A stretch of DNA of 14,831 bases. It comes from a virus. The position numbers were made by a program, and so were the translations under genes. Of the stretch, positions 2,251 through 13,707 are shown piece by piece (the first letter of the stretch is position 1; each line of letters begins with the position of its first letter). The DNA is taken from the UHGV virus genome UHGV-0322133. One strand, written 5' to 3'. The notes under the pieces were generated by a model. It had not been told where the DNA came from. It searched no databases and saw only the letters and a program-made list of their open reading frames with translations.

Positions 2251-3687
2251 TCAGAATCCTCCTTTCTTCTTGGACTGCGGTTCCTCGCGTTCACGGCGGC
2301 GCATTTCAGCAGACTGTTGGTCTGTATCATAAATAGCGCCATTTGCCTGAATGCAATACACCGTGCCGGTATTGCCATGACGATTGAGACGAAGGATTAG
2401 TTCGGTTTCACCAGGTGGAACACTGTCATCAAAAGCACCTTCACGATGGATCCCCACCCAATAATCGCAATCCTGTTCAATCTGCCCTGTATCTCGCGAG
2501 TCACTTGGTAATGGGCGCTTATTGGTTCGGCTTTCCAGTGCGCGGTTAAGCTGCGTCAGAAGCACAACAACGCAATCAAGCTCTTTGGCAAGGTTCTTCA
2601 GTCCTTTGGTGATCATGCCGTAAGCAAGGTCGTTGCGATCGGCCTTCTCAGCGGTCATTAGTGTCAGGTAATCGACCAGAATCATGCCAACACATCCTTT
2701 TTCTCGCTTGATTCGACGACTTTCGCTGACGATTTGAGCCAGAGATAATCCCGGCGTGTCGTCGATGTAAAGCAGGTCGATTTCACTCAAGCGATTGGCT
2801 GTTTCGATCGCCCTGTTGAAGTCACCATCGTAATCACCCTGATAGCCGTCATCAGCGTCATTTGTCGCCGGAAGGTAAAAAATATTCGGGTTAACACCTG
2901 ACTTCTGTCCTACCAGTTTTTCCAGTATCTGGTCACCGGGCATTTCAAGGCTGAACATCAGAGCGGGCTTTTTCTCATGCACTGCGCAGTTGATTGCCAT
3001 CTGGCTGTATAGCGTCGTTTTCCCCATCTTAGGGCGAGCGCCAATGACAAACAGAGAGCCTTTCACCAGACCTTTCGGTGACAGCATCCTGTCCAGCGAT
3101 GGGATCCCTGTGCTCATTCCCCGTTGTTCGCCTGATGGGTCAAATCGCTTCTCAAGGTCGCTAACCCAGTCTTCCATGACCTCACCAAATGAACGAAGGC
3201 CGCGACGCGATCCGGTTTTTGCATGGTCTGTCAGTTGCGTGAAAATCGACTGAATAGCTTCGTACTTCTGCGTTGCAGTCATTCCGTTGCGGGAATAGAG
3301 CAATTCCGTCGCTTCAGTCATGCGGTTGATGGCGTAGCGTTCCATTGCGGTTTCACGAACCTGCATTGCATAGGCAACGATGTTTGCGGCGCTTGGCGTG
3401 TTCTTTGCGATCTCAGCGATATAAGCAAAACCGCCAACAGACGCCGTTAACGATTTACGCTCCAATTCATCGAAAAGCGTCAGGCCATCTACTGGCTTTT
3501 GCTCCCGGTGCATTCTGGTTATTTCTTCGAAAAGGATTTTGTGTGGCCGGCTGTAAAATGAGTCAGGCTTCAGCATCGCCAGAACTTTCTGGACGCGCTC
3601 ACTGCTGTCATCATCCAGAAGCAATCCACCAATCACCGCCTGCTCTGCCTCGATGCTATGGGGCGGCGCATAAAAATTATCGGTCAT
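2251..3687 (-). CDS. replicative DNA helicase, DnaB family (P22 gene 12-like)
   Basis: N-terminal DnaB signature MTDNFYAPPHSIEAEQAVIGGLLLD; Walker A GARPKMGKT; RBS GAGGGTG at internal ATG of ORF 2251..3702. Confidence 0.9.
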   Translation of the reverse strand: MTDNFYAPPHSIEAEQAVIGGLLLDDDSSERVQKVLAMLKPDSFYSRPHKILFEEITRMHREQKPVDGLTLFDELERKSLTASVGGFAYIAEIAKNTPSAANIVAYAMQVRETAMERYAINRMTEATELLYSRNGMTATQKYEAIQSIFTQLTDHAKTGSRRGLRSFGEVMEDWVSDLEKRFDPSGEQRGMSTGIPSLDRMLSPKGLVKGSLFVIGARPKMGKTTLYSQMAINCAVHEKKPALMFSLEMPGDQILEKLVGQKSGVNPNIFYLPATNDADDGYQGDYDGDFNRAIETANRLSEIDLLYIDDTPGLSLAQIVSESRRIKREKGCVGMILVDYLTLMTAEKADRNDLAYGMITKGLKNLAKELDCVVVLLTQLNRALESRTNKRPLPSDSRDTGQIEQDCDYWVGIHREGAFDDSVPPGETELILRLNRHGNTGTVYCIQANGAIYDTDQQSAEMRRREREEPQSKKKGGF

Positions 3688-5147: not shown

Positions 5148-6500
<1,353 letters not shown>

Positions 6501-6618: not shown

Positions 6619-6662
6619 AATTTTAAGCCATCAGCAGGACGCGCTAACCACCATGAAGGTGA

Positions 6663-6693
6663 TGCTCTTAAAAATTAAGCCCTGAAGAAGGGC
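6663..6693 (+). promoter_or_regulatory. nutL (boxA and boxB)
   Basis: TGCTCTTAA followed by GCCCTGAAGAAGGGC hairpin (6679..6693), as in lambda nutL. Confidence 0.8.
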
Positions 6694-6865
6694 AGCATTC
6701 AAAGCAGAAGGCTTTGGGGTGTGGTGAAGGGTTCATGGATGGGAATATGTCGCACGTAAAGCGGCGAGGCCTGCGGAACTATTGCCGAATTGAAGTCGGC
6801 CGAAGCAGGTCGAAATGGGTCTCCCACCTACCACACCACCAAAGCTAACTGACAGGAGAATCAAG

Positions 6866-7198
6866 ATGGATGCACAAACACGACGCCGCGAACGTCGCGC
6901 AGAGAAACAGGCTCAATGGAAAGCAGCAAATCCCCTGTTGGTTGGGGTAAGCGCAAAACCAGTTAACCGCCCTATTCTCTCGCTGAATCGCAAACCGAAA
7001 TCACGAGTAGAAAGCGCACTGAATCCGATAGACCTTACAGTACTGGCTGAATACCACGAACAGATTGAAAGCAACCTGCAACGTATTGAGCGCAAGAATC
7101 AGCGCACATGGTACAGCAAGCCACGCAGTGAAATGGGTGTGACTTGTTCAGGCCGCCAGAAACAACGCGGAAAATCAATTCCAGCTTATTACGATTGA
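6866..7198 (+). CDS. N: N antitermination protein, lambda type
   Basis: MDAQTRRRERRAEKQAQWKAANPLLVGVSAKPVNRPILSLNRKPKSRVESALNPIDLTVLAEYH matches recalled lambda N including the arginine-rich motif; RBS ACAGGAGA. Confidence 0.9.
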   Translation: MDAQTRRRERRAEKQAQWKAANPLLVGVSAKPVNRPILSLNRKPKSRVESALNPIDLTVLAEYHEQIESNLQRIERKNQRTWYSKPRSEMGVTCSGRQKQRGKSIPAYYD

Positions 7199-7203
7199 GG
7201 TTA

Positions 7204-7473
7204 ATGATGAAGTTCAAATTGAACGATGAAGTTAAATGGTCAAGCTCATCAAACGGTGTAACGAAGGTAAAAATCGGGTTTATCGTCGAGGTGATTCCTC
7301 CTGGTGTCAACGTAAAAAAATTCGAACTAGGCCGTCTGCTAGATGCACCTGGCCTTCCGAGGAAAGAAGAGAGCTATATAGTTTGTGTAGCTCCAAGACC
7401 CGGATCTCGTGCCAAGCCAAAATATTACTGGCCGCGAGTTAATAACCTGCGTCACTTACACGATGACAAATAG
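7204..7473 (+). CDS. hypothetical protein (89 aa)
   Basis: ATGATG start 5 nt after N stop with GAGG RBS; no family recognised. Confidence 0.55.
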   Translation: MMKFKLNDEVKWSSSSNGVTKVKIGFIVEVIPPGVNVKKFELGRLLDAPGLPRKEESYIVCVAPRPGSRAKPKYYWPRVNNLRHLHDDK

Positions 7474-7528
7474 AAGTGAATATCATTGTTTTACTTTTTC
7501 GCAGCAAACCACTTATTTGAGGTGAGAT

Positions 7529-7852
7529 ATGGAAGCATTAGTAGTAGAGCGAAGCGAGGATGGCTACTGGACGCACCCAGAATACGCCAACCTGTTTGGG
7601 GATAGAGAGGTAATTTCAGCTGATGAGTTCAGATCTTTCTGCAAGCAGCATGGCATTGAATCATCAATTGTTGAAATGGAAAACGACAACAATCAAACGG
7701 TAATTGACGCGTATTTTGAAGATGGGAATCCAAACATCAGTGGATGGGAGCCAAGCATGCCAGATGGAGAAGGATGGTTTGTCGGTTCGATTCACGATAC
7801 AGAAGACGGTCCGATCTGCGTTTGGTTCAGGAATGTAGATAAGGCAGAATAG
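7529..7852 (+). CDS. hypothetical strongly acidic protein (107 aa)
   Basis: RBS GAGGTGAGAT; by my count about 24 Asp/Glu against about 6 Lys/Arg. Confidence 0.6.
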   Translation: MEALVVERSEDGYWTHPEYANLFGDREVISADEFRSFCKQHGIESSIVEMENDNNQTVIDAYFEDGNPNISGWEPSMPDGEGWFVGSIHDTEDGPICVWFRNVDKAE

Positions 7853-7986
7853 TCGGCCTTTATTTTTGGCATAAACAACAGAATAAACACAGCACTGTGT
7901 ATTCATTCCAACGAGTGAATACACGGAGCAATGTCGCTCGTAACTAAACAGGAGCCGACTTGTTCTGATTATTGGAAATCTTCTTT

Positions 7987-8012
7987 GCCCTCCGATGTGA
8001 GGGCCTTTTTAT
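7987..8012 (+). terminator. candidate rho-independent terminator upstream of cIII
   Basis: Stem GCCCTC/GAGGGC with 6-nt loop followed by CTTTTTA. Confidence 0.4.
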
Positions 8013-8076
8013 ATGCATAACAATAACGCTTCACTCGAGGCGTTTTCGTTATGCAATCAAATATAAGGAGTTACCC

Positions 8077-8211
8077 ATGATGCACTTTCAGCTCGCGGGT
8101 AGCGGCGTCATGTCCGCTTTCTACCCGCACGAATCTGAATTATCACGCCGAGTTAAACAATTAATCAGAGCAGCAAAGAAACAACTGGAGGCGTTATGCG
8201 CAATGAAATAG
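8077..8211 (+). CDS. cIII: CIII-like protein (FtsH inhibitor that stabilises CII), 44 aa
   Basis: MMHFQLAGSGVMSAFYPHESELSRRVKQLIRAAKKQLEAL resembles lambda CIII core (AGWPVAGCPSESLLERITRKL); RBS AAGGAG; internal start of ORF 7972..8211. Confidence 0.7.
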   Translation: MMHFQLAGSGVMSAFYPHESELSRRVKQLIRAAKKQLEALCAMK

Positions 8212-8348
8212 CCATCAATCACCAGATGCTTCGTGCTGCACAAAACAAAGCAGTAATAGCCAGATTTATTGGTGATTCAAAAATGTGGCTTGAAGCAAAT
8301 AAAGCGATGAAATCAGCTATCAACCTTCCGTGGTATCGCAGGAAATGA
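8196..8348 (+). CDS. kil: Kil-like host cell-division inhibitor (50 aa)
   Basis: Below the ORF-track cutoff. MRNEIAINHQMLRAAQNKAVIARFIGDSKMW...; IAxFIGDxKM motif as recalled for lambda Kil; RBS GGAGG; immediately after cIII. Confidence 0.6.
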   Translation: MRNEIAINHQMLRAAQNKAVIARFIGDSKMWLEANKAMKSAINLPWYRRK

Positions 8349-11038: not shown

Positions 11039-11679
11039 GCAACCGTTTTTACATGATGTGCTCGCGTGAAACTGTGGGTAATAACGCTTCATTCCATTGC
11101 CATAACGGCAATGGTTACAGTTCTAATATCGATCGCGCTCATGTTTACACGCTGGAAGAAGCCCAAAAAGCCTGGAATTGTGGTCGAGATATCGATCAGC
11201 CTGTTTGCGCTGATAGCGTGGATGCAATGGCTGTGTGGCACGTTGATTGCCAGTACATCCCTACAGAAAGCCTGATTGAGCCAGATTGTACTGCGTATGT
11301 GGCCTACAAAAAAGGTAGCTGGAACGGCAACGATGTTTACTGGCTTCAACATGGTGGATTGCCAACAGATGACTTCAGTAAAGCGACCATCTTTAGCGTC
11401 GCCAACAAAAACGAACCAGGAATAGTTTGGTTGCCATTTTCCATTGCTGATGCAGCAAAGCGCCGGACGTTCAATATCAATAACTTTAACCGCAGAACAA
11501 TGGTTCAGGGCGCAGGTTTGGTCATGCCTGACTGGTTGAAAGAGCAGAACAGAAGAAAGAAGTCGCGAAGCGGGAAGGTGCGTTGGAATTGTCCGCATTG
11601 CGGAAAAATAACTTGGCAGTACAGCCCATATGATTTTGAAGGCTGTAGTGATTACAACTGTGAAGGATGGCGAGAATGA
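11035..11679 (+). CDS. hypothetical Cys/His-rich protein with C-terminal CxxC zinc-ribbon-like motif (214 aa)
   Basis: GTG start 6 nt after GGAGG, overlapping the previous stop; ...RWNCPHCGKITWQYSPYDFEGCSDYNCEGW. Confidence 0.6.
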   Translation: MSNRFYMMCSRETVGNNASFHCHNGNGYSSNIDRAHVYTLEEAQKAWNCGRDIDQPVCADSVDAMAVWHVDCQYIPTESLIEPDCTAYVAYKKGSWNGNDVYWLQHGGLPTDDFSKATIFSVANKNEPGIVWLPFSIADAAKRRTFNINNFNRRTMVQGAGLVMPDWLKEQNRRKKSRSGKVRWNCPHCGKITWQYSPYDFEGCSDYNCEGWRE

Positions 11680-12371
11680 CAATTGACTATCAGGTACTGC
11701 GTGAGGCGGCAGAACGTGCAATGCCGGCAATGGAACGCCTGTTAATGTTGCCAGCTGATGATGACTTGTTAAGTGAACAGGAACTTAAAGATTACGGTGT
11801 GGATATTGATGCGCTCAACGCCTTCAAATTTCTGACCGGACCAGAAACCGTGCTGGCACTGCTGGATGAACGGGAAAGAAACCTGCAATACATCAAAAGC
11901 CGCGATCAGGAGAACGAGGATATTGCGCTAACGGTAGGGAAGCTGCGCGTTGAGCTTGAAGCAGCAAAATCAAAACTCAACGAGCAGCGTGAGTATTACG
12001 AAGGTGTTATCTCGGATGGAAGTAAGCGTATTGCTGAACTGGAGAAAAGCGAAGAGCAACTCATTAACGAGCGTGACCATGCTGAGTCTGCTTTAGCTGA
12101 TATGTACTTTGCAGCAACCGGGGATAGGCCGGAGTGGAGTAACTGGTTCGGCTTTTCAAATGCCGTAGATGCCGTGGTTGACAGAATTGCTGATTTAGAA
12201 GCTAAACAGCCATCACCAGTAGTACCGGAAGGACTGGTTAAAGCAGTGTGCTTCTATGAACAGGTTAAGCGTGAAAATCCGCCAGTCGAAACCGGAGCAT
12301 GGAAAGACGCTGTTGACTGGGTTCTCGAAGAGGCTTGTCAGGCTGTAAACATTGGCATCAAAGGAGAGTGA
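11676..12371 (+). CDS. hypothetical coiled-coil protein (231 aa; possibly Ead/Ea22-like)
   Basis: ATG overlapping the previous stop (ATGA); central heptad-like region KLRVELEAAKSKLNEQREYYEG. Confidence 0.6.
   Translation: MTIDYQVLREAAERAMPAMERLLMLPADDDLLSEQELKDYGVDIDALNAFKFLTGPETVLALLDERERNLQYIKSRDQENEDIALTVGKLRVELEAAKSKLNEQREYYEGVISDGSKRIAELEKSEEQLINERDHAESALADMYFAATGDRPEWSNWFGFSNAVDAVVDRIADLEAKQPSPVVPEGLVKAVCFYEQVKRENPPVETGAWKDAVDWVLEEACQAVNIGIKGE
12355..12371 (+). repeat. 17-bp direct repeat GCATCAAAGGAGAGTGA, copy 1 (gene-junction linker)
   Basis: Identical to 12849..12865; spans the last codons of one gene and the RBS of the next. Confidence 0.8.
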
Positions 12372-12373
12372 GA

Positions 12374-12865
12374 ATGCAAATTTCACCGGTTACTCTTCGT
12401 GTTGCGAAGGCGTTTATATCCAGACATCACCGACACAATAAACCACCTGTTGGGCATAAATTCAGCATTGGTCTGAGAAATGATGCCGGAGAATTGATAG
12501 GTGTGGCGACAGCTGGTAGACCTGTTGCACGACATTTGGACGATGGATTAACACTTGAAGTAAATCGCACATGTACCACAGGAGAACGCAACGCTAACAG
12601 CGCGCTTTATGGTGCTGTCTGGCGGGCAGCAAAAGCTATGGGTTATCAACGTTGTATTACGTACACCCAGGCAGATGAATCAGGAGCATCTCTTCGCGCA
12701 GCTGGTTTTGTTCGTGTGAAAGAGCTTCCTCCAAGAAAAAGCTGGGCGGAATCAAGCGTCGCCCTGCGGAGTAAACGCGATCCGGTCGGAAACGGTGGTG
12801 TTCCTCGTGTGCTTTGGGAAATCAGGAGAATGAGTACCACTGGCATTCGCATCAAAGGAGAGTGA
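12374..12865 (+). CDS. hypothetical protein, possibly GNAT-like fold (163 aa)
   Basis: RBS AAAGGAG at internal ATG of ORF 12335..12865; bracketed by the 17-bp direct repeat. Confidence 0.6.
   Translation: MQISPVTLRVAKAFISRHHRHNKPPVGHKFSIGLRNDAGELIGVATAGRPVARHLDDGLTLEVNRTCTTGERNANSALYGAVWRAAKAMGYQRCITYTQADESGASLRAAGFVRVKELPPRKSWAESSVALRSKRDPVGNGGVPRVLWEIRRMSTTGIRIKGE
12849..12865 (+). repeat. 17-bp direct repeat GCATCAAAGGAGAGTGA, copy 2
   Basis: Identical to 12355..12371; extended match CATT(G/C)GCATCAAAGGAGAGTGA. Confidence 0.8.
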
Positions 12866-13074: not shown

Positions 13075-13707
13075 ATGACCACTATTACCAGAGAACAGGC
13101 GCAGAAAATTATTGAAGCAGCCGATGAGGTTATTAGTGCGCTTGCCGGAACTAACGAGGATGTTCACCCTGGTAGCGATAACATGCTACGTCTGTGGGAT
13201 GACCTGAATGACCGTTACGCGCCCCCGGAAGTTGTGCGTGAGCTGGCACGAATTGCACTGGCATCACTGGAAGCAGAGCCTGTAAGCCAAACTTACAACT
13301 TGCCAGAATTAATCGAAGGCATGGAGGTTTCCATTGATGTAAGCACTTGTGATGCGGATTTAGGTAATCGCTATTTCGGTACCGTAACCGAGGCGTTAGA
13401 ACTTGATACAGCCAAGAATGGTTACATCCTCCTAGTTCAGGACGCAGAGCCAAACTTCGATATAAATGGCAACTCTCCGGTAATTCCGGATGGTTGGATA
13501 AGCTGTAGTGAGCGAATGCCGAAAAAGAATCAGAACGTACTTATTTCGGTGAATTTCGATAGTGATCTGGTTGAGCCGCTAATATGCTCCGCACGCTATA
13601 CCGGAAGTACCTTTCGGCGAGGACAAGCAACGATTAAGCCGGGTAATGGTATTGAGCAGGCAACTCACTGGATGCCGCTACCGGAACCGCCGCAGGAGGT
13701 AAAATGA
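13075..13707 (+). CDS. hypothetical protein with C-terminal DUF551-like domain (210 aa)
   Basis: C-terminal segment WISCSERMPKKNQNVLI...ATHWMPLPEPP resembles DUF551 as recalled. Confidence 0.6.
   Translation: MTTITREQAQKIIEAADEVISALAGTNEDVHPGSDNMLRLWDDLNDRYAPPEVVRELARIALASLEAEPVSQTYNLPELIEGMEVSIDVSTCDADLGNRYFGTVTEALELDTAKNGYILLVQDAEPNFDINGNSPVIPDGWISCSERMPKKNQNVLISVNFDSDLVEPLICSARYTGSTFRRGQATIKPGNGIEQATHWMPLPEPPQEVK

Follow-up and report, generated by a model that had tools for sequence, protein, structure and literature searches.

What do the two small genes between the antitermination gene N and cIII contribute to the lambdoid phage or prophage that carries them? We addressed this question for orfA (7204-7473, + strand) and orfB (7529-7852, + strand) of UHGV virus genome UHGV-0322133, of which a stretch of 14,831 nucleotides (nt), here called the window, was analyzed. 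The window comprises a lambdoid early region, either of a phage or of a prophage. A first-pass annotation had listed the two genes as unrecognised, had placed them immediately downstream of N, and had read the acidity of the second product, counted as about 24 acidic against about 6 basic residues, as a sign of a DNA-mimicking anti-restriction or anti-defence protein. Both open reading frames (ORFs) proved to be real genes with exactly these boundaries, as indicated by PHROG matches, homologues, the codon-position pattern and AlphaFold2 (AF2) models, and their position directly behind N was confirmed. With high confidence, orfB is the accessory protein gene orf184, found in the ral accessory region. 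As such it has been described before, as an accessory gene for which a trigger phenotype is published, and its acidity probably has to be explained in other terms than mimicry of DNA.

The orfB product is a polyanionic alpha/beta protein of 107 amino acids that matches PHROG 1372 (E 5.7e-44). Over 106 of its 107 residues it is 98.1% identical to AFM76385.1, gp45 of phage mEp213 (JQ182733, 30271-30588), the differences being V28A, S36Y and E107A. When the supplements of Silas et al. were searched by peptide, AFM76385.1 turned up there as UDP0184, or orf184. The term unrecognised remains appropriate for orfA but not for orfB, which is 98% identical to a published protein. Pfam, NCBIfam and PADLOC scans (the latter with a threshold of E<=0.01) returned nothing for either protein, the matching PHROGs are families of unknown function only, and both single-sequence and profile searches of the PDB gave nothing meaningful. 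No second orfA-like or orfB-like domain was found elsewhere in the window. We also considered orfA and orfB as defence genes and rejected this, given the missing PADLOC match and the location in the PL operon. The PL operon is repressed in a lysogen.

The phenotype of orf184 comes from a screen that included it among its 200 synthetic accessory genes (Silas et al., bioRxiv 10.1101/2023.04.06.535777); what is said here about this screen refers to the text and figure legends of the preprint and to the annotation comments of its authors. Their comment on orf184 is '???', meaning that it was checked and nothing meaningful was found. In ECOR59, expression of orf184 activates gop-beta-cII, a toxin-antitoxin-like locus for abortive infection that a P4-type satellite carries, and results in cell death. 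The effect was reconstituted with gop-beta-cII cloned into a lab strain, and transposon insertions suppressing it were located in gop and beta. Triggering of gop-beta-cII is the sole phenotype given for orf184 in the preprint. In the same work plaquing was raised by Ocr, Ral, ArdA, six novel genes and IpII, while Ronin responded to both DNA mimics, Ocr and ArdA, and EcoR22I to Ocr. The text and figure legends name orf184 neither among the sensitising genes nor among the triggers of Ronin or EcoR22I. A companion paper in Nat Commun does not contain orf184 in its text, and its supplements hold no orfB or orfA peptide motifs. From the 98%-identical allele it can be predicted that a phage or prophage with this window should be aborted in hosts that harbor a P4-type satellite encoding gop-beta-cII.

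The location of orfB agrees with this assignment. The boxB hairpin of nutL (GCCCTGAAGAAGGGC, 6679-6693, + strand), recognised by its sequence and by hairpin detection, lies between cI (5467-6099, + strand), an early-region gene upstream of nutL, and N (6866-7198, + strand), which encodes an antitermination protein of 110 amino acids (Pfam N36, E 1.6e-26; PHROG 271). In blastn, window positions 6629-7122 align with positions 1312-1791 of the lambda locus (L007), where 'Nutl' is annotated at 1361-1377. Since the boxB hairpin is located 5' of N, the PL operon runs rightward in the window. On the right the accessory slot is bounded by cIII (8077-8211, + strand; Pfam PF08134, E 2e-30), which is followed by kil (8196-8348, + strand), and the interval between N and cIII holds orfA and orfB only. 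The first hairpin downstream of PL that resembles an intrinsic terminator, GCCCTCCGATGTGAGGGC followed by the U-run CTTTTTAT, was detected at 7987-8004 (+ strand), behind both genes; the hairpin scan detected no terminator-like hairpin between N and position 7987. Hence, orfA and orfB are probably part of the immediate-early PL transcript together with N. A Shine-Dalgarno sequence of its own, GAGGTGA, precedes orfB. The spacer behind it (7853-8068) is strongly structured, with a fold z-score of -6.8 against shuffled controls. This spacer also contains a 14-bp hairpin at about 7895-7926 and a further hairpin at 8025-8044, and lambda ea10 is absent between it and cIII. An Rfam scan of the whole window returned no family.

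Comparison with lambda by blastn defined the block to which the two genes belong. Homology stops inside the 3' end of N (window position 7122) and restarts at 7849. The segment 7849-8014 corresponds to L007 2808-2972, and lambda ral ends at L007 2808, so that position 7849 aligns to the final base of ral and the right junction coincides with the stop codon of ral or orfB, respectively. The spacer that follows ral in lambda is 95% identical to the 7853-8068 segment of the window. From the gap in homology it follows that a mosaic block (7123-7848, + strand), consisting of the N tail, orfA and orfB, replaces the N tail, the tL1 region and ral of lambda. The last approximately 25 codons of N, from position 7123, belong to the same block as orfA. 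Different N alleles (lambda-type, P22-type and one with a third arginine-rich motif) that stand before orfA share the tail ...QKQRGKSIPAYYD (RGKSIPAYYD; loci L013, L015, L016, L031 and L032), which places a recombination junction within the 3' end of N. Thus, orfB is situated in the N-cIII accessory region that alternatively carries ral, and Silas et al. (bioRxiv 10.1101/2023.04.06.535777) likewise place orf184 and ral in one accessory region. The earlier argument that the slot behind N holds accessory functions was therefore borne out, both by the replaced tL1-ral segment and by the placement given in the preprint text. The Ral profile (PF11058) matched neither orfA nor orfB, and neither protein had a Pfam match at E<=1.

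Within this slot the two genes are two independent accessory-gene cassettes. Close relatives of orfA (at least 83% identity) sit 5-8 nt 3' of N, behind different N alleles, and precede Ral, a DUF7685 gene or other genes, not orfB. Relatives of 60-68% identity are located behind unrelated genes. Conversely, the window and mEp213 have orfB and its upstream spacer (from 7496) in common, without orfA. For practical purposes orf184 of mEp213 is the same protein as orfB and occupies the same accessory region downstream of N; in mEp213, however, a second, truncated N gene and another gene, of 74 codons, stand ahead of it, whereas orfA does so in the window. It is the occurrence of orfA relatives without orfB, together with the position of mEp213 orfB behind a different gene, that indicates independence of the cassettes. 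The mEp213 locus (L002) is annotated with two tandem N genes, 1453-1785 and 2938-3210, and the second, shorter one stands directly before the gene pair ending in orf184.

The domain encoded by orfB is widespread. A profile search of 1.84 billion cluster representatives (clusters at 50% identity) retrieved 1009 proteins at E<=1e-3 and 501 at E<=1e-10. All hosts of the 80 phage records with an orfB homologue are Proteobacteria, including Burkholderia, Pseudomonas, Escherichia, Erwinia, Vibrio, Klebsiella, Yersinia and others, and in nearly all of the phage records listed the homologue is called 'hypothetical'. Close alleles are present in 41 of 5426 complete E. coli genomes. The count of charged residues in the first-pass annotation was exact, with 24 D and E against 6 K and R, which corresponds to a net charge of -18. 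The calculated isoelectric point (pI) is 4.11. At a charge per residue of -0.168, orfB is the most acidic product longer than 50 amino acids among the plausible + strand genes from cI onward, several neighbors being likewise acidic (pI 4.3-4.7). Acidity is a trait of the family: 148 representative domains have a mean pI of 4.29 and a mean net charge of -13.9, and the pI is below 5 in 97% of them.

Many members of the family are fusion proteins. Among the 150 best representatives, 79 are at least 150 amino acids long and carry the orfB domain at either end, joined to very diverse partners. Partners that score above the Pfam thresholds are Lar, Tad2-like, Rv2179c-like exoribonuclease (2), DHHA1 and KTSC domains. 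The fusions to Lar, Tad2-like, DHHA1 and Rv2179c-like domains are continuous ORFs. Two fusions to Lar were confirmed individually; the summary count of Lar fusions is 3. Of the 77 partner segments, the majority are unique and the majority lack a known function; clustering did not reveal any dominant informative partner. The commonest partner (17 of 77) is a module of unknown function of about 100 amino acids, which forms the C-terminus of PHROGs 9434, 6628, 11504, 3956 and 9763 (proteins P0078, P0081, P0121, P0125, P0180, P0205 and others). In distant phages, orfB homologues adjoin Lar, exonuclease and methyltransferase genes. The fusions to Lar, Tad2-like, DHHA1 and Rv2179c-like domains and these neighborhoods associate orfB with counter-defence.

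The structural analysis was based on the AF2 model of ORF184 deposited by Silas et al.; its CA, CB and side-chain tip coordinates passed a geometry check. The model is confident (mean predicted local distance difference test score, pLDDT, 86) and describes a compact alpha/beta domain. No structural relative of the family was found in the PDB, and no enzyme family or fold matched orfB. In the model the most conserved residues (R8, W14, H16, W73, P75, W83, F84, I88, P95, W99 and R101) are buried and define the fold. Only the tip of a hairpin (D90-T91-E92-D93-G94), P17 and G80 are both conserved and exposed.

The missing enzyme or fold match, the buried conserved core and the conserved acidity together suggest that orfB acts by binding rather than by catalysis, and we prefer binding both to catalysis and to an Ocr-type DNA mimicry directed against type I restriction enzymes. 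We favor the following explanation, to which we give an even chance of being correct as a whole. orfA and orfB would be separate cassettes of a lambdoid prophage, lying in its N-cIII (ral) accessory region and sharing the PL transcript with N. The orfB protein, the product known as orf184, would serve the phage by binding stoichiometrically to a host protein, a component of a defence or of a host process, and blocking it. Contact would be made through the acidic surface and the tip of the HDTEDG beta-hairpin, and gop-beta-cII would detect either the orfB protein itself or its effect. orfA would be a factor of its own. For the part concerning orfB, stoichiometric binding of a host protein with gop-beta-cII sensing the protein or its effect, our confidence is moderate to low.

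Several points weigh against this explanation. No host target of orfB is known, and the text of the preprint reports no phage-sensitising phenotype in the screens, which makes a counter-defence role guilt by association. The fusion partners are so diverse, with 77 segments, that the fusions to Lar and Tad2-like domains may merely reflect shuffling of accessory modules. The three-dimensional analysis was carried out on an AF2 monomer, and the oligomeric state could differ. Moreover, gop-beta-cII is reported to protect against lambda and P1 (PMC9122126), and searches of the phage collection detected no orfB homologue in either phage. As both phages are restricted and yet lack a homologue, orf184 cannot be the only trigger of gop-beta-cII, a situation no less compatible with sensing of an effect than with direct recognition of the protein. 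The P1-like phage D6 does carry an orfB homologue, adjoining ppp.

The same evidence can be read in three other ways. orfB might have no part in counter-defence and be a modular domain that works in a process internal to the phage or in host takeover, such as recombination, replication or early regulation, in which case the toxicity with gop-beta-cII would be incidental sensing of a common early protein. Distant homologues do lie among recombination, exonuclease and ea- or nin-type early genes, among the 150 best representatives about half are fusions with Ead/Ea22-like coiled coils and other unknown early modules, much like the DUF551 proteins of the window, and the preprint text reports no counter-defence phenotype. 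However, the gene is dispensable and patchy, as its rarity among E. coli genomes illustrates, it alternates with ral in one accessory region, and its fusions include bona fide counter-defence domains. We regard this alternative as possible but doubtful. A further proposal, which we put forward tentatively and think rather unlikely, is that the polyanionic orfB domain has a new fold and serves as inhibitor of, or docking module for, one conserved proteobacterial defence or nucleic-acid-handling protein outside type I restriction, and that abortive systems such as gop-beta-cII guard that target. If this were true, the approximately 1000 clusters would, together with the fusions to Lar, Tad2 and nucleases, make up a single counter-defence family, widespread and so far unrecognised. 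Finally, the domain could be an adaptor that docks onto one conserved proteobacterial host protein, so that the fusions deliver Lar, Tad2-like, nuclease or phosphoesterase effectors and the stand-alone form acts as a competitive blocker. Its N- or C-terminal placement in multi-domain proteins, beside many unrelated partners, would fit, as would the very conserved core and hairpin across phages of Burkholderia, Pseudomonas, Vibrio and enterobacteria. Against it, no docking partner is known, many fusion partners lack a recognisable effector function, and neighboring accessory genes can fuse without functional coupling; we consider it unlikely.

The original proposal of a DNA mimic fared less well. 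In its specific form orfB would resemble Ocr and ArdA and would occupy the DNA-binding groove of type I (or type III or BREX) restriction complexes, protecting unmodified phage DNA. The high negative charge, the low pI and the retention of acidity throughout the family are what such a protein would show, it sits in the exact slot of ral, relatives fused to Lar exist, and early expression is expected from its position before the first terminator-like site. On the surface of the AF2 monomer the 23 carboxylates are distributed isotropically (mean resultant length 0.17 against 0.16 +/- 0.07 for the null). In the best rigid fit to straight 14-bp B-DNA, 7-8 of the 23 came within 3 A of phosphates; random sets of exposed positions reached 7.4 +/- 0.7. 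The comparison was made with a monomer model and predicted side chains and had no positive control. The fit thus gives no support for a phosphate-like array in the monomer, although an oligomer may present one. Neither in sequence nor in fold did we detect homology of orfB to Ocr, ArdA, Arn, Gam or other mimics, or to any solved or viral predicted structure outside its own family. In addition, the preprint text and legends report neither sensitisation nor triggering of Ronin or EcoR22I by orf184 in the screen that contained Ocr, ArdA and Ral. What survives of the original lead is the acidity itself, a family trait that is accompanied by Lar and Tad2-like fusions; the DNA mimicry drawn from it found no signal above the null with an AF2 monomer and straight DNA, and anti-restriction activity lacks support in a screen that names Ocr, ArdA and Ral, and not orf184, as sensitising the host. 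Mimicry of the Ocr type therefore appears quite unlikely. Binding of a host protein remains the explanation that we favor for orfB, whose large family has conserved acidity, is structurally unlike anything solved and is repeatedly fused to counter-defence domains, and is hence a reasonable target for partner finding.

orfA is a different kind of gene. It starts 5 nt past the stop codon of N with a double ATG, preceded by a GAGG Shine-Dalgarno sequence 4 nt upstream, and is translationally coupled to N. Its basic product (89 amino acids, pI 9.88) aligns with PHROG 11941 over the full length (E 1.4e-45; residues 1-87, profile of 88 positions) and thereby belongs to a catalogued but unstudied family. 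The 30 database homologues extend down to about 55% identity, and the C-terminal motif PGSRAKPKYYWPR is invariant. Compared with 27 distinct homologous DNA sequences, differences fall on codon positions 1, 2 and 3 in the numbers 319, 296 and 745, and in relatives of 83-88% identity synonymous changes outnumber non-synonymous ones about 2:1. By these substitution patterns orfA evolves as an intact coding gene under purifying selection. IMG/VR contains 44 orfA loci, and a tblastn search of 50,697 phage records returned no match. Of the 50 complete E. coli RefSeq genomes with orfA (7375-7644 in locus L001), the majority have no annotated feature at its position; in NZ_OZ040950 the gap between N and the orfB homologue was left unannotated, though orfA matches there. 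The omission of a conserved, selected and N-coupled gene from most RefSeq annotations is a small but concrete annotation gap.

The AF2 model of orfA is also confident (mean pLDDT 86) and predicts a small five-stranded beta-barrel of the SH3/Tudor-like type. No KOW or royal-family sequence signature was found, with no Pfam match at E<=1 and nothing relevant in a PDB profile search, while the aromatic-cage geometry was not examined. We suggest that orfA is a nucleic-acid- or protein-binding accessory factor made by coupling to N, and its function is not tied to that of orfB by any evidence found. That the barrel, Tudor- or KOW-like, acts as a cofactor of N antitermination by contacting RNA polymerase, NusG/S10 or nut RNA seems very unlikely.

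Two further genes of the window may be mentioned. Immediately behind cI, where lambda has rex, an ORF at 6093-6500 encodes 135 amino acids (158 from an upstream ATG) with a hydrophobic, signal-like N-terminus and no Pfam or PADLOC match; it may be a lysogen-expressed moron. At 12374-12862 a basic protein of 163 amino acids weakly resembles the Mom family, with a score of 22.4 bits (E 1e-4) that stays below the cut-off of 27.1. Judged from this similarity, it may have a function of the DNA-modification type in the same operon.

How do orfA and orfB compare with systems that are understood better? The barrel of orfA shares its predicted architecture with SH3-like, Tudor, PWWP and KOW barrels, with a sequence identity of just 11-21% and no Pfam match, and the C-terminal PGSRAKPKYYWPR extension is specific to PHROG 11941. 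A similar logic of assembly to that of the orfB family is seen in early proteins of the DUF551 and Ead/Ea22 type, in which shuffling within early operons has likewise joined a short conserved domain to variable modules, either coiled coils or unknown; the domain is a different one, without a profile match. The window itself encodes an Ead/Ea22-like protein (11667-12371) and a DUF551 protein (13075-13707) with a long N-terminal segment that matches no family, and this architecture of a variable module and a short conserved domain matches that of the fused orfB relatives. Ocr (T7 gp0.3) and ArdA are, like orfB, small, strongly acidic proteins (pI about 4) of phages or plasmids that are expressed early. 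It differs in that it has no sequence or fold similarity to them, its monomer model has no detectable phosphate-like array of carboxylates, and neither of the screen phenotypes of Ocr and ArdA is reported for orf184 in the preprint text. Lambda Ral (PF11058), an anti-restriction modulator of the type I methyltransferase, shares the genomic slot with orfB and no sequence relationship, and the two are positional analogues only. Ral hyperactivates the methyltransferase allosterically and causes no cell death, whereas orf184, by contrast, triggers gop-beta-cII (Silas et al., bioRxiv 10.1101/2023.04.06.535777).
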